Shown: positions 3,055 through 27,782 of the stretch, in pieces
Layout: each line of letters opens with the position of its first letter
Numbering within the stretch: position 1 is the first letter of the stretch
Source: Promethearchaeota archaeon
GTDB taxonomy: Archaea; Asgardarchaeota; Lokiarchaeia; Sigyniarchaeales; SOKP01
Direction of reading: 5' to 3'
DNA length: 28,250 nucleotides
NCBI GenBank assembly: GCA_019894975.1
Contig: JAGXNO010000043.1
Span: 1-28,250 of the forward strand
Made by a program: the position numbers and the translations under genes
Notes under the pieces: generated by a model
Databases searched by the model: none
The model's input: only the letters and a program-made list of their open reading frames with translations
Told to the model about the DNA's origin: nothing

Positions 3055-4026
3055 ATGATAAAAACTAAAGTAACTGAAATGTTGGGATGTAAATATCCTA
3101 TTATATCAGGAACGATGGCCAATATTTCCTATCCTGAATTTGTAGCCGCAGTAAGCAACGCGGGAGCTTGTGCTGTATTAGCAAGTGCAAATTATCAAAC
3201 TCCTGAAGAGCTACGTGAGGGAATTAGAAAAACTCAATCATTAACAGATCAGCCGTTTGCTGTAAACATAAATCTATTTCCAGCTATGATGCCACCAGAA
3301 AAATTGGAGGATTACGTAACTGCGACGTTAGATGAGGGTGTAAAAATAATTGAAACTAGCGGTCATAAAGCTCCAGCAGATCTGGTTCCAAAATTCAAAG
3401 ACGGGGGTGCCATATGGATACATAAATGTGCCGGTGTCAGATATGCTAAAACAGCCGCATCTTTGGGTGCTGATATAATTACCGTTGTGGGTTATGAAAA
3501 CGGTGGTGCAACTGGAACTTTAGATATTGGAACTTTTGTTATGATACCTTCAGTTGTGGATGCCATAGATGTTCCTGTAATTGCAGGGGGTGGAATTACA
3601 GATGGAAGAGGTATTGCGGCGGCTCTTGCACTTGGTGCTGAAGGAGTAATCATGGGGACCAGGATGATGGCCACTAAAGAATGCCCACTTCATGATAATT
3701 TAAAACAAGCTTTTGTGCAAGCGTCGGAAACTGATACTCATTTAGTCATGCGTTCTATACGTAACACACATAGAGTATGGAGGAATCAAGCAGCAGAAAA
3801 AATAATTGAATTGGAATCTAAAAAAGCGCCCTTACAAGAAATTATTCAAGTAGCTTCTGGTCAAAATGCTCGAAAAATGTATATAGAGGGCGATATAACT
3901 GCAGGAATGGTAAGCTGTGGTCAAGGGGTAGGTCTAGTGAAGGATATTCCAACTGTAAAAGAATTGCTTGATAGGATAATGAAAGAAGCCGAAGAGGTCA
4001 TCCAAAGGTTAAAAAAGATTTCCTAA
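3055..4026 (+). CDS. Nitronate monooxygenase / enoyl-reductase FabK-like FMN TIM-barrel protein
   Basis: KYPIISGTM, TDQPFAVNI, VPVIAGGGITDGRGIAAALALGAEGVIMGTR and C-terminal CGQGVGLV are NMO/FabK family motifs. Confidence 0.92.
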   Translation: MIKTKVTEMLGCKYPIISGTMANISYPEFVAAVSNAGACAVLASANYQTPEELREGIRKTQSLTDQPFAVNINLFPAMMPPEKLEDYVTATLDEGVKIIETSGHKAPADLVPKFKDGGAIWIHKCAGVRYAKTAASLGADIITVVGYENGGATGTLDIGTFVMIPSVVDAIDVPVIAGGGITDGRGIAAALALGAEGVIMGTRMMATKECPLHDNLKQAFVQASETDTHLVMRSIRNTHRVWRNQAAEKIIELESKKAPLQEIIQVASGQNARKMYIEGDITAGMVSCGQGVGLVKDIPTVKELLDRIMKEAEEVIQRLKKIS

Positions 4027-4202: not shown

Positions 4203-5234
4203 CTATTTTAACATAGAACTGTTTTTCTTTATAGCTGCTTCTGCTTCATTTATTACCCTTTTAATGATATCATTGACGTCGTCAATACTATCAATAACAC
4301 CTATTGATTGTCCGAGTAACACTGCTCCGGTTGTAGTATCTCCTTTATAAACCCTATCATAAGCACCAGCATCTCGTAGTAATGCCTCAGGTGTTAAGGA
4401 TTTCTCATAAGCAATCATGTCTTCTTTAGTTTGGGGTGCTGGATGTGCTAAAGCATATTCATTTTTATATAAACGAATAGGACCAAATGATCCTGTGAAG
4501 AGATCCGTATCTTGTGGTTTACCAGGTGGAACTAAGGCTTTATAATTTTCATGGAACTCGCTTTGTTTGGATGCAATAAATCGTGAGCCCATAGCTATTG
4601 CTCCTGCGCCAAGAGATAAAGCTGCAGCTAAACCTTCTCCTGAAGCAAATCCTCCACACGCAATCGTAGGTAAATCAGGAAAAAGTTTTCTAATTTGTTG
4701 TAGTAGTACAAGAGTACTTACTCTCTCATATGATTGATGCCCTCCTCCTTCACCACCAGTAGCTACTATTCCGTCGACCTTAGCATCTACACATTTCTGA
4801 GCTAACCATACGGCTGGTGCTACATGAAAATGTTTTACTTCCGATTTTTCCCGTAATTCTTGAAAATTCTTAGAAGAAGGTAAAATCTTTGAAGAACCCG
4901 CAGAAGTTAACCAGTAAACACACTGTTCTCTCATCTTAGGATTTTCCATAACCATTTTAGGTACATCAGTACACATTTCTTTGACTCCCCGATTATTTCG
5001 AGAGGTTAGGAAATTAAGGCCAAATGGCTTGTCTGTGTGCTCAATCATGTATTCTATGCTTTCTATGTGTTCTTTTACCGGATCTGTTCCAGTTATATTA
5101 ACATTTGACAAAACACCCAGTCCCCCTGCCTCACAAACTGCTAAAGCTAGATCCCTTGTATAAAAAGGACCCATAGGGGCACTAAAAATAGGGTGCTTTA
5201 TTCCAAACATTTTTGTTATGTTAGTTTCGATCAT
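4203..5234 (-). CDS. Nitronate monooxygenase / FabK-like enoyl reductase (second paralog)
   Basis: GIKHPIFSAPM, TDKPFGLN, GGEGGGH, IACGGFASGEGLAAALSLGAGAIAMGSRF, LGQSIG. An SD-like AGGTGA lies upstream on the minus strand (tcacct at ~5243-5248). Confidence 0.92.
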   Translation of the reverse strand: MIETNITKMFGIKHPIFSAPMGPFYTRDLALAVCEAGGLGVLSNVNITGTDPVKEHIESIEYMIEHTDKPFGLNFLTSRNNRGVKEMCTDVPKMVMENPKMREQCVYWLTSAGSSKILPSSKNFQELREKSEVKHFHVAPAVWLAQKCVDAKVDGIVATGGEGGGHQSYERVSTLVLLQQIRKLFPDLPTIACGGFASGEGLAAALSLGAGAIAMGSRFIASKQSEFHENYKALVPPGKPQDTDLFTGSFGPIRLYKNEYALAHPAPQTKEDMIAYEKSLTPEALLRDAGAYDRVYKGDTTTGAVLLGQSIGVIDSIDDVNDIIKRVINEAEAAIKKNSSMLK

Positions 5235-5323: not shown

Positions 5324-8218
5324 TTAATAAAGATAATACTTGATTTTCTTATGGTGCCACATTCGAACTAAAAGAAAAACAGTAATAAATGCTATAGTTA
5401 TAAGGAATGAATAGAATAGGTTCCAATTAGAAATAAACCAAATTAATACGATTCCACTAATTATTATCAGAAGATAATAATAAAAGAACTGTTTTCTGAC
5501 TTTATTTATCTCCCAGATAAAGAGACAAGAACCAGAAATTACCCCAATATTGAATCCAATATCTAAAAATGGTTCTAGATTACTATACTCCATAAAAGCT
5601 AATGACACTGCTCCAAACAATCCAAGAATTAGAAAAAGCCAAAGTTTCTTATTGGTTTTTTCATCAAAAATCGTTTTTCTTATATGACTAAAACCATTTC
5701 GATACAATGCCCAAAATACAAGTGCAATACTAAAAACTTTCAGATAAAAATGACCAAAGAACAGATCTACGTTATCTAAAAACGTTAAGTTAATGTTATA
5801 CCCTACTTCTACGAATAGATTTAGCATCCAATCTGGAGCAGAGAACTCAAATAGAAAATTAATAGATGGTATAAATTCAATTGAAGTCACTATTTTTAAT
5901 AATGCCCGTAAAGCCCACACAAAATAGAATATTACGAATATATCAAATATTTTAATTAATTTTTGGGAAAAAAGGATGGTTGATACTTTGAAATAACTTG
6001 AAATTGTAGCAATTATACAAGTACCAATTAAGATATTTATAAACAGAGCTAAACTAAACAGTGCCCAAATTGTTATGTCAAGTGTTTGGGAATTAATTCT
6101 AAATGATAAAAATGTTAATATGCCCAAAAATGCCACAATACTAGCATAAGTTAAAGGCTTTATTATATTAGAGATTTTAAATCGTTTTATTCCAGTTTTT
6201 TGTAATTTTTGCGCAGTTTCCTCTTGCTTGCTCAATCCTGAAAGTGCCATTAATCTATCATATTTAATACCTTTTGATTTCAGAGCTAATGCCTTGAATT
6301 TCTCGGAAGCTTTTTTTTGTAAAGGGTTTTTTGATACATTTATAGTTTTCAAGTGAGAAAGCACACCTAAAGAGTTTGGAAGATATCTTATGTTGTTATC
6401 TTCCAAATTTAAAATCTCCAACAATTCGAGACTGCCAAATGTATCAGGTAGATCGGTTAATTTGTTGTTATAGAGATCTAAATACATAAGCGATTTGAGA
6501 TCCCCAAATGATTCAGGAAGATGTTTCAACTCACACGAACTTAAATCTAATTCTTGAAGAGAGACCAAATTCCCAAAGTTATGCGGTAATTCATTCAAAC
6601 TCCCCTTGTAAAAAAAAACCGGTGCCTCTAAATAAATTTTCTGTAGATTGGTTAAATTACAAAAAGATTCTGGAAGTCTTTTAATTGGATTATTTTCTAA
6701 ATGAATTTCTTGAAGAAATTTAAGGTTTCCAATTGATTCAGGTAAAGATACTAAAGCATTATTTTCAAGATGTAGAATTTTTAGGTTCTTCATATATTCT
6801 ATAGATTCTGGAAGGAGTGCTAAATCAGTTAATGCTACATCTAGCATTTCAAGTGATTCTAATTCAGGAATAAAACGTGGTAATCTGACTAATTGATTAG
6901 AGCGTAAACCTAACTTTTTAAGAGATTTAAATGAAACTATTGATTCTGGGAGTGTGGTTAAAAAACAGTTAAACAGCCCTAAACCTACAACACTCCCATT
7001 TTCGATTGCGATACCAAATGCGGTCCCATCAATTTCAAATAATATTGGGATACCAGATTCTTCTATTTTTTTGCTAATAGCTTGATAATATTTATTCTGT
7101 ATACTTAGTTTTTCAATAATTAATTGTTCTAAATCTTTTAATGCTTCTCTCTCGCTTTGTCCTACATAATAGTCCTTATATTTATGGCTATCTTCAGTCA
7201 ATTCATATGAGTCACCTTTACTTCTTGAAATGATTATCGAATATATTATCTCATAAAACAAATCATCAATATTTTCCCCAGTTTTGGCGGATACTAATAA
7301 ATGTTTAATAAGAAATTTTTTAGCAATCTTATCAATATCATTTAATCTTGAATTTAAATGCCCATCACTTAAATCACTTTTCGTAATTGCTAAAATAATA
7401 GGGATTTCGTAAGAAACTGATTCAACAATTTCATTATACCATTTTTCGATATTTTTCAAAGGTTTTGGGTTCGAAATATCTAAAACAATTAAAGCAGCAT
7501 CAGCAAATTTATAAATCTTTTCTTTAGAAGGAGAAATTTGGCTTGATAATCCACCTGTATCCCAAATTGCCAAATTCATAATAATATCGTCATCAATGTT
7601 TACAACCTTTTTGACTACCTTAAATCCTGATGTAGATTTCAAATCGCTACCAAAATTTTTCTCAGCAAACCGATGAATTAATGAAGATTTACCTGCTTTA
7701 TAATCTCCTAATACTGCAATCTTAATTAACAGTTTTTCTATCGGGTGTTCAATCTTTTTTACTTTTGAATACAACTTAATAGTACTCGGAGTTTCTACTT
7801 CGAGATTTTCTGATTTCTCAGAGCCTTCAGATGTTAGTCTTTTAATTTCTCCTGCAACATATACGGAATAAATTTTTAAATCAATATCCATTGTTTCTTT
7901 TTCTGTTATTACAAATATCATAGAGTACGAATCTGTTGAACAAAATACTAATTTATTTTTTTGGTTTTCTTTAATTAATAGAAAATCATTTTGTTTTCCA
8001 TATTCATTATCAATCTCATGAATAAATTGATCTATAAGGCTATGATGGACATTAGATTGAGCTTCATTAAGATCAGGGTTATTAAAATAACTAAGGAGAG
8101 AATAATCTTTTCTCTCGTAAACTAAGATAGTCAAAATCCCACGAATATCTGTAACAAATTGCCTTAATAGCTTAATAAGTAAAGAGTTTTCCATTGATTC
8201 TCTTTCTAACCAATACAA
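5324..8218 (-). CDS. Multidomain protein: roadblock-like domain + Rab-like small GTPase + LRR array + multi-TM domain
   Basis: G1 GDYKAGKS (7708-7685), G2 KSTSG, G3 WDTGG (7564-7550), G4 TKSD, G5 SAK(TGENID). About 10 LRRs of 23 aa (LxxLxLxxNxLxxLPxxxxxL, ~6990-6320). About 8 hydrophobic helices (~6160-5350). The listed start at 8218 is TTG; the ATG at 8194 (MENSLL) may be the true start. Confidence 0.9.
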   Translation of the reverse strand: MYWLERESMENSLLIKLLRQFVTDIRGILTILVYERKDYSLLSYFNNPDLNEAQSNVHHSLIDQFIHEIDNEYGKQNDFLLIKENQKNKLVFCSTDSYSMIFVITEKETMDIDLKIYSVYVAGEIKRLTSEGSEKSENLEVETPSTIKLYSKVKKIEHPIEKLLIKIAVLGDYKAGKSSLIHRFAEKNFGSDLKSTSGFKVVKKVVNIDDDIIMNLAIWDTGGLSSQISPSKEKIYKFADAALIVLDISNPKPLKNIEKWYNEIVESVSYEIPIILAITKSDLSDGHLNSRLNDIDKIAKKFLIKHLLVSAKTGENIDDLFYEIIYSIIISRSKGDSYELTEDSHKYKDYYVGQSEREALKDLEQLIIEKLSIQNKYYQAISKKIEESGIPILFEIDGTAFGIAIENGSVVGLGLFNCFLTTLPESIVSFKSLKKLGLRSNQLVRLPRFIPELESLEMLDVALTDLALLPESIEYMKNLKILHLENNALVSLPESIGNLKFLQEIHLENNPIKRLPESFCNLTNLQKIYLEAPVFFYKGSLNELPHNFGNLVSLQELDLSSCELKHLPESFGDLKSLMYLDLYNNKLTDLPDTFGSLELLEILNLEDNNIRYLPNSLGVLSHLKTINVSKNPLQKKASEKFKALALKSKGIKYDRLMALSGLSKQEETAQKLQKTGIKRFKISNIIKPLTYASIVAFLGILTFLSFRINSQTLDITIWALFSLALFINILIGTCIIATISSYFKVSTILFSQKLIKIFDIFVIFYFVWALRALLKIVTSIEFIPSINFLFEFSAPDWMLNLFVEVGYNINLTFLDNVDLFFGHFYLKVFSIALVFWALYRNGFSHIRKTIFDEKTNKKLWLFLILGLFGAVSLAFMEYSNLEPFLDIGFNIGVISGSCLFIWEINKVRKQFFYYYLLIIISGIVLIWFISNWNLFYSFLITIAFITVFLLVRMWHHKKIKYYLY

Positions 8219-14760: not shown

Positions 14761-15525
14761 CTATAAGGGTAATTTAGCTCCGCAATTATAACAATATTTT
14801 CCGGGCAATAAACTTTTATATCCACATTTAGGGCATGGATTCTGTAGTTTTTGAACTCCATTTCTTTTATTATATCTTCCTACCCAAATTATTGATCCCC
14901 CTGAAATGATAGTGACAACAATCCCAACAATAACAGGTAAAAGGGTAACTTGACCATTATTAGAGCTAAATATTAAACACGGTCTATAGTTGTCCCAATC
15001 ATATTCCTTTGAGGTAATATTTACAAGTTCATCTTGGAAATATGGAGAATCAATGCAAATTGAAAAAATGTCACCAGATACATGAGAACTTACGTCAATA
15101 AGAATTTCTGAATCATTTACCACAGAAAAATATAGTAGTATTTCTCCCTGAAGTGGTTTATTAAACCAAGTAATTGAAGATTCTTCCCAATCATCAACAA
15201 TATTTAAAATCTTAAATTCTACCGCTTCTGATACTAAATAAAAGTCAAGGTAAAGTTCTATTTTACTTCTACCCGTCGATATCCCACTAAGATCAAAATA
15301 AATATATGCTTCAATTTGTTGCAAACCAGTCATAGGGACATAAAAGGTTCCACATTCCATATTCATTTGACTACCAAAATTCTTATGAGGTTCATAGCTG
15401 TTCACGTAAGAGTCTTTAGTGGGGAATAACACAGTGTTAGAAGCTTGGGCTGTAAAACTCAAGGCAGAAAGAGAGAGAATCAAAATAGTAAAAAAGATAA
15501 TTCCCTTGGAAAATTTACTTTTCAT
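14761..15525 (-). CDS. Secreted DNRLRE (CBM96-like) domain protein with TM anchor and C-terminal zinc ribbon
   Basis: Signal peptide ending AQA. KDSYV..P..NFG, YIYFDLS, WEESSITWFNKP and ITSKE...RPCL are DNRLRE hallmarks. TM helix LLPVIVGIVVTIISGGSIIWVG, then CPKCG...YCYNCG. Confidence 0.8.
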   Translation of the reverse strand: MKSKFSKGIIFFTILILSLSALSFTAQASNTVLFPTKDSYVNSYEPHKNFGSQMNMECGTFYVPMTGLQQIEAYIYFDLSGISTGRSKIELYLDFYLVSEAVEFKILNIVDDWEESSITWFNKPLQGEILLYFSVVNDSEILIDVSSHVSGDIFSICIDSPYFQDELVNITSKEYDWDNYRPCLIFSSNNGQVTLLPVIVGIVVTIISGGSIIWVGRYNKRNGVQKLQNPCPKCGYKSLLPGKYCYNCGAKLPL

Positions 15526-19004: not shown

Positions 19005-19472
19005 ATGGAACCGTATTCAGCTTATAATATAAAAAGGAAAAAAAGGAAAATCCATAATTCTATAAATTTTGATATTATTTTAAAAAAAGTCTTCAAGAGC
19101 CAACCTGGTATTAAAAAAGTAATTTTAGTAGATAAAACGGGGAAGACTATTGCAAGCGTATCGAAATTTTCTTATTTTTCAGTTGCTGTAGATTCTATCG
19201 GAGCTACTGTGAGTGCAATCTTTTGCGCAAGCGAAGAGCAAGGAAAAAATCTTGAATTAGGAAGATTAGAAATAATCACTTCAGAATTTGAAAATGGAAA
19301 AATAATTGCATCTAATTTTTGTTCAGATGCAGTTCTCACTTTAATTTGCGATTCTGATCTTAATATTGGTTTAATTAGGCTTGTTTTAGCAAGAGCTGTA
19401 AGTGAAGTGAAAGATAATTTTCTATTAAAATTTTCAAACACTTTAGATTTTTATGATTTTTCAGATTTGTAA
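19005..19472 (+). CDS. Roadblock/LC7 (MglB-like) domain protein
   Basis: GIKKVILVDKTGKTIAS, IGATVSAIFCASEEQGKNLELGRLEIITSEFENGKI, AVLTLICDSDLNIGLIRL form a typical roadblock pattern. Confidence 0.9.
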   Translation: MEPYSAYNIKRKKRKIHNSINFDIILKKVFKSQPGIKKVILVDKTGKTIASVSKFSYFSVAVDSIGATVSAIFCASEEQGKNLELGRLEIITSEFENGKIIASNFCSDAVLTLICDSDLNIGLIRLVLARAVSEVKDNFLLKFSNTLDFYDFSDL

Positions 19473-25712: not shown

Positions 25713-27782
25713 TTATCTTGTAATTTCGTATTTATAATCTGCAGGACCTATAGTAGGACTTACAATCACAATTAAATAACCATCTTCTTGTATATATCCA
25801 CTCAAATCTAAAGACCCACGCTCGGTTATATCATCGAGTGATAATTTAATCACTTCAGTGTAAGATGGAATTTCATTATTGATAGTAACATCAACAATAG
25901 ATACTTCAAAATCAGTTTCAGGGAGAGGGGGCGTTGTAAATACAACCAAATCATCTGCATCATCAATTAAAACATCGTTAACCGCAATATCATCAACCCA
26001 CCATCCAGGATTTTCAGTTCCCCAATCCGTCATGTACCTAAAACTTAAAAGAACTGTTTGTCCTGCATAAGGTGTAAGATTAAAATTCATAGTTTCCCAA
26101 CCAAATGAACCTGTTAATCCTGGTAGATTTTCTACAATCGTAGGATATGCATCAGGATCATGGTCTATTGTTGTATACTCATTTTCTAATGAAATCCAAG
26201 TTTCCCCGTTATTTTCAGATATTTGAACAAATCCATAATCCCAAAGTTCTTCAATGTCAAAATATGTGTTAAAAGATAGAGTAACCGTTCCTGTAGGGAC
26301 GTCAATAATAGTATTCATTGAAAGATCCTTTTCTGGTCCAGCAGTTGTAGAATACCACTCTAGATCTCCATCTCCATCTTGATCTACCCTTGTCCAGATA
26401 GGTGGTTTTGCAACATCATCACCATCGAATATAAATTCTTGACTCATTGACTCACTTAATCCACTTAACATAAAGTAATCTGTACCATATGATCCTACTA
26501 AATATACGTCTGTATTTTTGTGTAAAATTGTTTTTGTTTGACCAAAATCTACTCCATTAGTTGGAGGTAACCATGGTCTTTTGACCTCATAAACTCTAAT
26601 TGGGTCTGCGTCCTCGCACCCTAAATCAATTGTAAGATAGTTATATTTTCCATTTCCGATTTCGTTTGTATGCAAAATATTTGCTAGGGTCCAATCGTAG
26701 AATACTTCTTCAAAAGTTTCAGTAGCCCCAAAGTAATTAAGCGCATTATTAATCCCTTCTATCCCCGGAATTCCTGTTTTTACAAAATAGCTAATAAATT
26801 CTGCTCCCCCGTAATGATCACTTAAATAAATTGACCATAGTAATCCTTGCCCATAATCAGCCAAAATATTAATGTCTCCTTGATCTCCCCACACTGTTAA
26901 CGAATTGTCTGGAGTTGCAAGAAAACTATTAATCGATCCCCAATCAATAGGATAACCACATAAAGGTTCCGCGTACATTGAGCATCCTTCATTCATGAAT
27001 ATATCATCTTCAGGGTTATAATCATCGTGAATGAGGTGTTGATATTCGTGAGCGACAGTTGCCTCATAAAGGTTTGGTCTAGCCGCATCGTCACCTACCC
27101 TGTTTTCCCAGTCAGCACTATCAATCGAAATTATATTCCTATCAAATTGCCTTTCAAAATAGGACCAGTAGAATCCTACAATGTAATAAGGATAACTTCT
27201 GCTATAATATGCCTCATCTCTAATATTAGAAACCAAAATTACTGTTCTTCCACTATTATCCTCGTAAGTTCCTTCTGGAACTACTCCATCTATTACTAAC
27301 TGAGAATTGCTTCCATTATGAAAATCAGGTTCTCCGAAGTAATCATTGCAAACTGGGGCGATATCAATTTCAAATTCTTCTAACATATAATTTGCCTGTT
27401 CATCTGTTACTACAGGTACATCCCTTCCATCTGGATACGCCATATCAACTTGAACCCAAAGTTCAACAGTCGCACCGATGGATCTTAATTCAAACGTATC
27501 AAAAAATGTTTCTCCCGTATAATCGTCAAGTATCAACCAGTCTAAAAGATCACCGACCGCATAGTAATCAAGACTAGCGATCATTAATCCTGGCGTTGTG
27601 TCATGTTGCGAAAATGACCCTCTTATAGGTAATTCTTTTGTTCTCAATTCATAACCAATATCAATGGGGACTAATTCTATGGATTCTGTATTAGAAACTA
27701 AGGTAAATCCAAATATGAGCCCCATTGATATTGGAACAATTAAAAGAATAAAAAGAGTTGAAATTTTAGTAGATTTCTTCAT
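25713..27782 (-). CDS. Secreted zinc metalloprotease, immune inhibitor A (M6)-like
   Basis: Signal/anchor peptide, HEYQHLIH zinc motif and downstream MNEG. C-terminal InhA-like beta domain FDIEELWDYGFVQIS..G.TW.SL...GLTG..GW....FNLTPYAGQTV...FRYMTD......GWWVDDI. Confidence 0.88.
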   Translation of the reverse strand: MKKSTKISTLFILLIVPISMGLIFGFTLVSNTESIELVPIDIGYELRTKELPIRGSFSQHDTTPGLMIASLDYYAVGDLLDWLILDDYTGETFFDTFELRSIGATVELWVQVDMAYPDGRDVPVVTDEQANYMLEEFEIDIAPVCNDYFGEPDFHNGSNSQLVIDGVVPEGTYEDNSGRTVILVSNIRDEAYYSRSYPYYIVGFYWSYFERQFDRNIISIDSADWENRVGDDAARPNLYEATVAHEYQHLIHDDYNPEDDIFMNEGCSMYAEPLCGYPIDWGSINSFLATPDNSLTVWGDQGDINILADYGQGLLWSIYLSDHYGGAEFISYFVKTGIPGIEGINNALNYFGATETFEEVFYDWTLANILHTNEIGNGKYNYLTIDLGCEDADPIRVYEVKRPWLPPTNGVDFGQTKTILHKNTDVYLVGSYGTDYFMLSGLSESMSQEFIFDGDDVAKPPIWTRVDQDGDGDLEWYSTTAGPEKDLSMNTIIDVPTGTVTLSFNTYFDIEELWDYGFVQISENNGETWISLENEYTTIDHDPDAYPTIVENLPGLTGSFGWETMNFNLTPYAGQTVLLSFRYMTDWGTENPGWWVDDIAVNDVLIDDADDLVVFTTPPLPETDFEVSIVDVTINNEIPSYTEVIKLSLDDITERGSLDLSGYIQEDGYLIVIVSPTIGPADYKYEITR

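Follow-up and report, generated by a model that had tools for sequence, protein, structure and literature searches.

A conserved Lokiarchaeial gene encodes a Roadblock-fold domain, a Rab-like GTPase domain, an LRR array and a predicted eight-helix membrane module in a single chain

INTRODUCTION

To our knowledge, the Ras-superfamily GTPases of Asgard archaea number in the dozens and come without CAAX boxes, prenyltransferases, GDIs or lipid anchors. Elsewhere, FeoB joins a G domain and a polytopic Fe(II) permease in one chain, and in the SHOC2-MRAS-PP1C complex a GTP-loaded Ras protein sits on the concave face of an LRR horseshoe. In human cells, Asgard GTPases showed no membrane localization (PMC10933270). 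Fusions of a Roadblock domain to a GTPase (RB-GTPases) have been described in Asgard archaea, in “Ca. Prometheoarchaeum” MK-D1 by Tran et al. and in work from 2016 (summarized in PMC4917890). The actinobacterial conservon consists of a membrane sensor kinase (CvnA), a Roadblock protein (CvnB), CvnC and a GTPase (CvnD) (PMC4316618). Asgard LRR proteins are still listed as being of unknown function in recent surveys (bioRxiv 10.64898/2026.10.28.762692).

Here we describe a gene that brings such parts together in one polypeptide. It lies in a window, by which we mean the whole stretch of DNA analyzed, that spans positions 1 to 28,250 of the forward strand of contig JAGXNO010000043.1 (GenBank assembly GCA_019894975.1) from a Promethearchaeota archaeon (GTDB lineage Archaea; Asgardarchaeota; Lokiarchaeia; Sigyniarchaeales; SOKP01). 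Coordinates are window positions, and all features lie on the minus strand.

RESULTS

The gene occupies a single, uninterrupted open reading frame at 5324-8218, which comprises 964 codons when counted from a TTG at 8218. Because the start is equivalent to M9 of this listed frame in 17 of 17 aligned orthologues, and because the ESM Atlas record also begins there, the true start is most likely the ATG at 8194, which would give a gene at 5324..8194 (stop codon at 5324-5326) and a product of 956 aa. The N terminus has no hydrophobic signal sequence, in line with an earlier reading of the DNA, made from the sequence only, that had reported no signal peptide. From the N to the C terminus, the protein contains a Roadblock domain, a Rab-like G domain, an LRR array and an 8-TM module; this four-module anatomy in one frame, which the sequence-only reading had proposed, was upheld by Pfam, AF2, Foldseek and hydropathy.

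Full-length, collinear homologues (940 to 964 aa, 43 to 88% identity, 98 to 99% coverage) were recovered from NCBI, JGI, ENA and Logan assemblies. A misassembly had been named as one outcome that would overturn the architecture; the collinear full-length protein is present in no fewer than 20 independent assemblies, which excludes a chimera. The architecture is a conserved, real Asgard gene and not a product of chance or assembly. A search of Asgard genomes for the same architecture, suggested by the earlier reading, found it in 22 of 134 genomes of one taxonomic family, that of the present genome, and in none of 266 genomes from the rest of the phylum. Within the same genus it is present in 9 of 53 genomes. 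The gene is single-copy and its distribution is patchy. Given this narrow and patchy occurrence, the gene is a lineage-specific invention and not an ancestral feature bearing directly on eukaryogenesis. Such patchiness is unusual for a housekeeping signaling hub and speaks against the switch reading that we prefer below. The sequence-only reading knew of no characterized protein with this architecture, and a literature search indeed found no published description of a Roadblock-GTPase-LRR-8TM protein; the claim is tempered by orthologues already deposited in databases, where they are annotated merely as “GTP-binding protein,” and by the precedent of FeoB for fusing a G domain to a polytopic membrane domain.

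The N-terminal domain (aa 9-130; 7829..8194) had been read as an alpha/beta domain of Roadblock type, and its predicted structure agrees. The AF2 model (mean pLDDT, 79; pTM, 0.74) has the topology a-b-b-a-b-b-b-a, and its best Foldseek matches in the PDB are to MglB (1j3w/3t12; E 1e-6 [1.4e-6]; TM-score, 0.66 to 0.75), followed by MglC, LAMTOR, the Asgard Roadblock structures 9jue/7yh1 and the RagA/C CTD; all 50 of the 50 PDB matches shown are Roadblock-fold chains. Sequence profiles give weaker signals. No Pfam model, including Robl_LC7 (PF03259), matched aa 9-158 above threshold in any of 18 orthologues, the homologous domain of a paralogue reached only E 3.6e-4 against Robl_LC7 (20.6 bits; cut-off, 23), and dynein Roadblock chains gave subthreshold profile matches (E 0.18 to 1.1). 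By its fold the domain belongs to the Roadblock/LC7 group, and by its score it falls below the Pfam gathering threshold. A prediction of two paired copies (aa 9-158, family alignment) scored 0.02 against a mark of 0.42 and was uninformative either way. Column identity across the family alignment is 0.56 for the Roadblock domain, and the linker that joins it to the G domain (aa 131-163; 7730..7828) is poorly conserved and modeled with low confidence.

The G domain (aa 164-330; 7229..7729; column identity, 0.66) matches the Pfam Ras model over aa 166-328 (E 1e-28, 100 bits; cut-off, 21.6). We class it as Rab-like on the basis of Pfam scores and PDB ranking: the Ras and Rab models score above Roc (69 bits), and Rabs make up all of the best 60 PDB sequence matches (Rab11, 1e-20; the Thorarchaeota Rab 7ezb, 3e-19). 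RabF-like stretches show partial similarity only, as judged by eye in an alignment with Rab11. The complete set of G1 to G5 motifs that had been reported is present: G1 (GDYKAGKS; 7685-7708), G2 (Thr196), G3 (DTGG; 7550-7561), G4 (TKSD; 7373-7384) and G5 (SAK; 7283-7291). Since G171, G176, K177, T196, D220, G223, K280, D282, S310 and A311 show no variation among 18 orthologues that range down to 43% identity, nucleotide binding is, on this alignment evidence, under selection. The internal position of the G domain makes a C-terminal prenylatable Cys motif impossible.

The residues associated with catalysis are a different matter. The residue that lines up with the catalytic Gln of Ras (Q61) and Rab11 (Q70), as read from the Rab11 alignment, is Leu224 (7547..7549), and all 18 orthologues have Leu or Phe there, so that the Gln after DxxG is absent. 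A bulky Tyr occupies the Ras-G12 position, and the Asn of NKxD is replaced by Thr/Ser. Changes of this sort block hydrolysis in Ras and Rab. Given the bulky G12-position residue and the Leu/Phe at the Q61 position, the G domain by itself should hydrolyze GTP very slowly. These same substitutions, including that at NKxD, would also be expected if the domain were a pseudo-switch, permanently GTP bound or insensitive to nucleotide, and the protein simply a membrane LRR scaffold. We consider this improbable: every residue that contacts nucleotide or Mg, the switch I Thr among them, is invariant, the Roadblock regulator domain has been kept in most lineages, and switch II is retained as a distinct and highly conserved motif, GG[LF]xx[QR]I[SP]PxKE, which argues for a working, regulated switch.

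Between the G domain and the repeats lies a conserved helical linker with the LRR N-cap (aa 331-409; 6992..7228). It contains no COR domain; neither COR (PF16095) nor COR-A (PF25497) matched anywhere in the protein at E<=1, and the same Pfam models do annotate genuine Roco proteins among the homologue matches. The proposed order of GTPase before LRR, with no COR, therefore stood. The LRR array itself (aa 410-634; 6317..6991) is matched by LRR_14 (2.7e-29), LRR_8 (2.3e-25) and LRR_4 (5e-17) over aa ~410-686. About ten 23-residue repeats had been counted, and we likewise found ten units between aa 410 and 645, of which eight are regular 23-residue repeats (LxxLxLxxNxLxxLPxxIGxL), one is an irregular 29-residue repeat (525-553) and one is a terminal unit that runs on into a helix. 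By its repeat sequence, the array can be assigned to the typical 23- to 24-residue cytoplasmic class. Column identity is 0.73 for the array as a whole, and conservation is higher on the concave face (0.73) than on the convex face (0.58). This difference is the reason that we propose a conserved partner for the LRRs.

The array is followed by a juxtamembrane amphipathic helix (aa 635-660), which with a short variable linker spans 6173..6316. This helix is the most conserved segment of the protein (81% column identity; 0.81). Profile matches of LRR-TM relatives start within it, and so, on profile evidence, it is part of the TM module; some of these relatives begin with the helix. The orphan module proper (aa 683-955; 5354..6172) has eight TM helices according to hydropathy and AF2 helices, in agreement with the roughly eight previously suggested for a polytopic domain, plus two short helices at 784-805. 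Since the AF2 model (18 sequences; pLDDT, 57; pTM, 0.35) is too poor for a fair fold comparison, both the number of helices and their topology depend on hydropathy and charge bias. The basic loops alternate in the pattern predicted for eight helices with both ends inside, and the positive-inside rule predicts that loops 840-857 and 905-911 and the C-terminal tail are cytoplasmic. The topology would thus be N-in/C-in, and the Roadblock domain, G domain and LRRs would face the cytoplasm, as the earlier reading had supposed. The same topology would put both arrays of relatives arranged as LRR-TM-LRR on one side of the membrane.

The conserved, net-acidic outer loop or reentrant region at aa 779-818 (5765..5884) contains the near-invariant residues E781, P795, Y807, N816 and D818, which together with R771 may make up a polar site facing outward. 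Y742, R771 and Y807, all polar or charged and located in the membrane or close to it, are invariant across the superfamily, and D759, E781, N816 and D818 are near-invariant; His823 is not kept in the wider TM family. Taken with the very high conservation of the module, the charged and polar invariants speak for an active membrane function, such as that of a transporter, channel or enzyme, no less than for a sensor or an anchor. We found no relatives of the module in Pfam, NCBIfam (protein), a PDB profile search or the Atlas, no Pfam match in 19 diverse members of the TM family, and only helical-hairpin matches (Z<=8.1) in a wide VIA-align structural search with the poor TM model.

The origin of the gene can be traced through relatives of its two halves. 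Its closest paralogue in the same genome, which holds about 50 matches to Ras-superfamily GTPases, is a 327-aa, two-domain RB-GTPase. It aligns collinearly with aa 9-330 across both domains (32% identity, E 2e-58) and retains the catalytic Gln as GGQ. This 327-aa family has more than 800 members (69 to 90% identity) in several Asgard groups and is near-universal in Asgard archaea. A TM profile search of 1.84 billion (1.84e9) representatives returned 29 proteins, and LRRs were present in 12 of 12 scanned relatives longer than 500 aa, arranged as LRR-TM, TM-LRR or LRR-TM-LRR; another TM relative is a separate gene directly downstream of an LRR gene. The invariant residues of the module are common to these proteins. 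Judged from these profiles, the ~290-aa 8-TM module and juxtamembrane helix, linked to LRRs, constitute an unnamed, new Asgard LRR-8TM family, and in its tree the members with a G domain group together as a single clade (support, 92/95).

Because both a stand-alone RB-GTPase paralogue and GTPase-less LRR-TM relatives exist, the gene is, as far as such comparisons can tell, a fusion of two older units, an RB-GTPase and an LRR-8TM protein. The TM module (0.75), the LRRs and the juxtamembrane helix exceed the G domain and the Roadblock domain in column identity, which suggests that LRR-8TM is the old and most constrained core and the RB-GTPase a later add-on. Forms of ~800 aa that lack the Roadblock are scattered in the tree, implying at least three changes, and the Roadblock part appears to be dispensable and to have been lost at least three times. 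A conserved 97- to 98-aa ORF upstream of the ~800-aa forms at three loci was considered as a split-off Roadblock gene and rejected (hhalign probability, 0.2); this ORF lies elsewhere in the present genome. Two further Roadblock-less loci have no room upstream for a Roadblock gene.

These relatives bear on a FeoB-like alternative, in which the 8-TM module is a transporter, channel or enzyme gated by the nucleotide state of the RB-GTPase-LRR part. In its favor, no other large part of the protein is as strongly conserved as the TM module, which has invariant polar and charged residues within or close to the membrane; the LRR-TM proteins imply that the module is workable without a GTPase; and FeoB itself is a precedent for combining a G domain with a polytopic permease. 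Nevertheless, the module resembles no family of transporters, channels or enzymes in sequence or, as far as the poor TM model allows a comparison, in fold. It has no recognizable catalytic motif, His823 is not conserved in the wider family, and an obligatory LRR partner is foreign to known transporters. We regard a gated effector of this kind as unlikely.

Across genera we found no conserved gene neighborhood, only synteny within genera, and so the gene probably stands alone. In three contexts examined, no GTPase or Roadblock gene adjoined a stand-alone LRR-TM gene. Two LRR-TM relatives do adjoin, respectively, an Eco57I-type methylase/restriction gene and an AAA_15/AAA_21 ATPase, which favors an NLR-like defense role, an alternative offered by the sequence-only reading, whereby the LRRs detect an invader, the G domain switches and the TM module damages or depolarizes the membrane. 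The single-copy, patchy distribution in one family would also fit such a role, as would the fusion of Asgard LRRs among the homologue matches to TIR, caspase and NACHT domains. This suggestion is weakened by the LRR concave face, which is conserved and not diversified, and by orthologues that are 43 to 88% identical along their entire length. In addition, the neighbors in the window are metabolic (two NMO genes, GNAT, EamA, a hydrolase and a nitroreductase), no conserved defense neighborhood was found, the PADLOC match is weak and to a generic GTPase, LeoA (E 3e-5), and only Ras-class P-loop Pfam models match the protein, with no NACHT/NB-ARC STAND NTPase module. This constitutive and highly conserved 8-TM bundle is also unlike the small TM effectors that are known. 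We conclude that a defense function is very unlikely.

DISCUSSION

Our preferred reading, to which we give a probability of roughly 0.45, is that the gene product is a Ras-superfamily switch integral to the membrane, a GTP-dependent scaffold or sensor, born by fusion of an RB-GTPase to an LRR-8TM protein. The core 327-aa Roadblock-Rab-like GTPase would have been duplicated, and one copy fused N-terminally to an existing LRR-8TM protein in one Lokiarchaeia-type family, with the LRR-8TM unit as the working core. The concave face of the LRRs would hold a conserved partner, which might be a cytosolic effector or, in one of its nucleotide states, the G domain of the same chain, by analogy with the way that MRAS-GTP sits in SHOC2. 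The nucleotide state of the G domain would then gate this contact at the membrane, with hydrolysis or exchange set by the Roadblock in cis, by dimerization or by a partner, and the covalent membrane domain would replace lipid anchoring.

The anatomy and structural predictions of the sequence-only reading were borne out, and its picture of a receptor joined to a G protein of its own stays a proposal. On that picture, the 8-TM module would sense a membrane or external cue at the outer polar site and signal through the helix and LRRs to a Roadblock-controlled switch, all in one chain; we think this possible but doubtful.

If that picture holds, Asgard archaea would have had Ras-superfamily signaling in the membrane that was independent of lipid anchors, and core RB-GTPases may act in trans with stand-alone LRR-8TM proteins in other lineages. 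As a Rosetta-stone fusion, the gene predicts that the 327-aa RB-GTPases and LRR-8TM proteins can act together, since the two are fused in one gene, and it gives a testable partner to one of many Asgard LRR proteins. The TM module also defines a new orphan membrane-protein family. Set against what is known of Asgard GTPases, this Roadblock-GTPase-LRR-8TM family would be a counterexample, with a Rab-like switch put in the membrane by gene fusion.

Several described systems share some of these features. Like FeoB, and like the tail- or helix-anchored Miro and Sar1, the protein attaches a GTPase to the membrane by its own polypeptide and not by a lipid. Compared with FeoB, its G domain is of the Ras/Rab class and not TrmE-Era, the TM modules of the two proteins are unrelated, and LRRs separate the G domain from the membrane part; no FeoB_N or FeoB_C/Gate model of Pfam or NCBIfam matched at E<=1. 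Roco proteins (LRR-Roc-COR; Chlorobaculum tepidum Roco, LRRK2, MFHAS1) likewise have a Ras-like G domain and LxxLPxxIGxL repeats in one chain; here, however, the G domain precedes the LRRs and scores higher with Ras/Rab models than with Roc, there is no COR, and the protein is membrane integral. SHOC2 has the same cytoplasmic LRR class, and the concave conservation seen here would fit docking of a G domain or fixed partner, although homology between the two does not extend beyond the repeat type.

The pairing of a Roadblock with a small GTPase recalls MglA/MglB and Rag-Ragulator, where Roadblock domains serve to regulate GTPases and as platforms for dimerization, and the fold is indeed closest to MglB, then to LAMTOR and RagA/C. 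Here, in contrast, the Roadblock is in cis, N-terminal to a G domain that is Rab-like and not MglA- or Rag-like. The conservon, too, brings a Roadblock and a small GTPase together with a membrane component in one membrane-associated signaling unit, but does so with four separate proteins and a histidine kinase, whereas the present protein is one chain with LRRs, an unrelated TM module and no kinase. Closest of all in order are the Asgard RB-GTPase fusions, in which an N-terminal Roadblock is likewise followed by a Rab/Ras-like G domain. Those proteins are soluble, have two domains and keep the catalytic Gln, whereas the protein described here has Leu224 and continues into LRRs and an 8-TM module.

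Identity and integrity of the gene

The gene at 5324-8218 (-) is one unbroken open reading frame of 964 codons counted from a TTG, in a window of about 30% G+C. The ATG at 8194 is most likely its true start and would yield a protein of 956 aa, because the N-terminal residue of 17 out of 17 orthologues aligns with M9, which is also the first residue in the ESM Atlas record of the protein; residue numbers are counted here from the TTG. Pfam placed Ras at aa 166-328 (E = 1e-28) along with Roc (E = 7e-19) and put several LRR models at aa ~410-686. It matched nothing over aa 1-160 or in the final 280 residues, and NCBIfam agreed. Hydropathy placed a block of hydrophobic helices at aa 685 to 957, and no signal-like N-terminal segment was found. 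All of the elements listed in the sequence-only reading were located where it had put them.

Among 5.8 billion clusters searched, 23 homologues were recovered (query coverage, 66 to 99%; identity, 43 to 88%), 17 of which are 940 to 964 aa long with 98 to 99% coverage. They derive from NCBI, JGI, ENA, and Logan assemblies and are named only “GTP-binding protein,” from Promethearchaeota, Lokiarchaeota, and Hermodarchaeota MAGs. The four modules are collinear throughout an 18-sequence alignment, with a mean column identity of 67%. Because collinear orthologues occur in independent assemblies and in 22 genomes of the family, the chimeric assembly that had been a concern could be ruled out.

A predicted Roadblock fold precedes an atypical Rab-like G domain

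An AF2 model of aa 9-158, made with the family alignment as input (pLDDT, 79; pTM, 0.74), has the secondary-structure order a-b-b-a-b-b-b-a. When this model was compared with the PDB by Foldseek, Roadblock-fold chains made up all 50 matches listed, including MglB of T. thermophilus and M. xanthus (E = 1.4e-6; TM-score, 0.66 to 0.75), MglC, LAMTOR subunits, the solved Asgard Roadblock proteins 9jue and 7yh1, and the C-terminal domains of RagA/C. The N-terminal domain is thus predicted to adopt a Roadblock fold, as had been proposed. By sequence it falls under the Pfam threshold, and its family profile gives weak but in-register matches to dynein Roadblock chains. About 11 kb away, at 19005-19472 (+), the window encodes a stand-alone Roadblock protein of 155 aa (Pfam MAPKK1_Int/LAMTOR3, 2e-9; Robl_LC7, 6.7e-8).

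The best 60 PDB sequence matches to the G domain are all Rabs, among them Rab11 (1e-20), the Thorarchaeota Rab 7ezb (3e-19), Ypt7, Rab4, Rab5, Rab7, and Rab8, and the nucleotide-binding residues G171, G176, K177, T196, D220, G223, K280, D282, S310, and A311 are invariant in 18 of 18 orthologues. Whereas canonical Ras and Rab proteins carry the catalytic Gln after DTGG, every orthologue has Leu or Phe there. The family also differs from canonical Rab at the Ras-G12 position, usually Tyr, and at G4, which reads [TS]KxD, and its switch II follows a distinct conserved motif, GG[LF]xx[QR]I[SP]PxKE. Given the established Ras and Rab biochemistry for such residue changes, the domain should bind GTP and hydrolyze it very slowly unless helped. 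A protein with this G domain could be read as a pseudo-switch scaffold, which we consider distinctly unlikely. Pfam detects no COR domain and the LRRs lie C-terminal to the G domain, both as first described, and for these reasons we rejected a Roco identity.

The LRR array and its candidate ligand

Ten LRR units span aa 410-645. Of these, eight keep a regular length of 23 residues and conform to the cytoplasmic LxxLxLxxNxLxxLPxxIGxL type; an irregular unit of 29 residues carries a conserved YLEAPxFFYKG insertion, and a terminal unit completes the array. Among non-scaffold positions, the concave face is more conserved across orthologues than the convex face (0.73 versus 0.58), which points to a fixed rather than a diversifying ligand. 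We favor, with a probability of roughly 45%, a membrane-resident GTP-dependent scaffold or sensor. The concave face would bind a conserved partner, which may be the G domain of the same protein when in one nucleotide state, and the slow switch of the G domain would be set by the Roadblock domain or by dimerization.

An orphan membrane module linked to LRRs

AF2 helices and hydropathy together place a conserved amphipathic helix at aa 635-660 and eight TM helices within aa ~683-955, with a pair of short helices at 784-805. Segments 840-857 and 905-911 and the C-tail are strongly basic and alternate with acidic segments (779-818 and 877-886); by the positive-inside rule this alternation suggests that both ends of the eight-helix module are cytoplasmic. 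The AF2 model of the module is poor (pLDDT, 57), and fold searches with it gave no informative match. Pfam, NCBIfam, and PDB profile searches found no relatives, leaving the module an orphan by sequence. When 1.84 billion representatives were searched exhaustively with a HMMER profile, only 29 related proteins were recovered, with Helarchaeota and Lokiarchaeota MAGs as their named sources. The module represents an orphan membrane-protein family.

LRRs were present in all 12 scanned relatives longer than 500 aa and either precede the TM module, follow it, or flank it on both sides. At locus L024, a 146-aa LRR gene (5494-5934) is followed directly by a 394-aa stand-alone 8-TM gene (6001-7185), both (+); a further 494-aa LRR gene lies near this split pair. 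Another relative with an LRR array and 8-TM module (LRR-8TM), P0141 (943 aa; Lokiarchaeota MAG), has a region of about 370 aa without a Pfam match (aa 1-370; L023:6001-7110) where our protein has its Roadblock and G domains.

G732, Y742, R771, P795, Y807, W836, G842, G866, and G892 are invariant across the wider family of TM modules, and D759, E781, N816, and D818 are near-invariant in it; His823 is not conserved there. Such very high conservation with polar invariants would suit a GTPase-gated transporter, channel, or enzyme working on FeoB logic, a reading that we regard as rather unlikely.

Proposed origin by fusion and repeated loss of the Roadblock domain

Among about 50 Ras-like matches in the window's genome, the closest to our protein (G-domain identity, 41%) is a 327-aa two-domain protein encoded at L022:1661-2644 (+) (G000:C33). 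The Roadblock and G domains of this core RB-GTPase are collinear with aa 9-330 (32% identity; E = 2e-58); it keeps GGQ, and its Robl_LC7 and LAMTOR3 matches are both subthreshold. Part of a second copy of its G domain, a 93-aa fragment, is found at L022:4482-4763. The core RB-GTPase belongs to a very large, highly conserved Asgard family, with more than 800 matches at E ≤ 1e-20; the 120 matches listed show 69 to 100% identity and derive from Promethearchaeota, Hermod-, Hod-, and Odinarchaeota. Fusions of this kind have been described (PMC10933270; PMC4917890).

A midpoint-rooted tree built on the TM module unites the G-containing proteins in a single group (support, 92/95) apart from plain LRR-TM proteins. 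The simplest history is that a duplicated RB-GTPase was joined once to an LRR-8TM gene and that the catalytic Gln was then lost. Some proteins of ~800 aa begin at the G1 motif and lack Roadblock; they are scattered on the tree among Roadblock-bearing ones, requiring at least three changes, and no Roadblock gene lies upstream of them at the loci examined. We conclude on these grounds that the Roadblock domain was lost repeatedly. Upstream of Roadblock-less forms in one genus is a conserved 97- to 98-aa ORF of unassigned family (L013:4004-4297, L014:4015-4311, and L015:5578-5874). It shares 80% identity with a gene that the window's genome carries elsewhere (G000:C153) and was rejected as a split Roadblock, as it is not a Roadblock. 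Conservation is ranked from the juxtamembrane helix (0.81) through the TM module (0.75), LRRs (0.73), and G domain (0.66) to the Roadblock domain (0.56). The LRR-8TM unit appears to be the constrained core and the RB-GTPase a regulatory addition.

Distribution and genomic context

When 400 genomes of the phylum were scanned in six frames, the gene turned up in 22 of the 134 that belong to the window's own family, representing five genera, and in 0 of the 266 from other families. Within the same genus 9 of 53 genomes carry it, and it is single copy in every carrier. Its neighbors in the window are two NMO-family genes (nitronate monooxygenase/FMN oxidoreductase), convergent and directly downstream (3055-4026 [+] and 4203-5234 [-]), and GNAT, EamA transporter, alpha/beta hydrolase, methyladenine glycosylase, and nitroreductase genes. 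No neighbor is conserved across genera, and the gene appears to act alone. The window also encodes a 752-aa ORF without a Pfam match (673-2931 [+]) and two probably surface or secreted proteins, one of 689 aa with an InhA-like MAM domain (25713-27782 [-]) and a 254-aa CBM96 protein (14761-15525 [-]). In another genus, four tandem small-GTPase-sized genes (177 to 193 aa) matching our G domain lie about 850 bp downstream of the orthologue (L017:11667-14247 [-]; G170:C10), an arrangement absent at other loci.

Two LRR-8TM relatives lie beside defense-like genes (L025:2363-4093 [-] and L023:13231-14832 [+]), a sample too small to infer a defense-island association. One is divergent from an adjoining AAA_15/AAA_21 ATPase gene, followed by a 299-aa gene; the other precedes an N6_Mtase/Eco57I gene by about 4.4 kb. 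An NLR-like conflict protein would be consistent with the patchy distribution and with these restriction-like or ATPase neighbors of two relatives, but it is improbable given that the LRR face is conserved, PADLOC lent it no support, and the neighbor genes are metabolic.

Comparison with known systems

Each soluble module and the RB-GTPase pairing were already known. What is new is the LRR-8TM parent family and how strictly it is tied to LRRs, the core RB-GTPase as the other parent, the repeated Roadblock loss and domain-by-domain conservation ranking, and the phylum-wide distribution of the gene. We found no description in the literature of the Roadblock-GTPase-LRR-TM architecture or of its TM module, and to that extent the earlier statement that no characterized protein has such an architecture stands; it is tempered by FeoB, a precedent for a G domain fused to a membrane domain.
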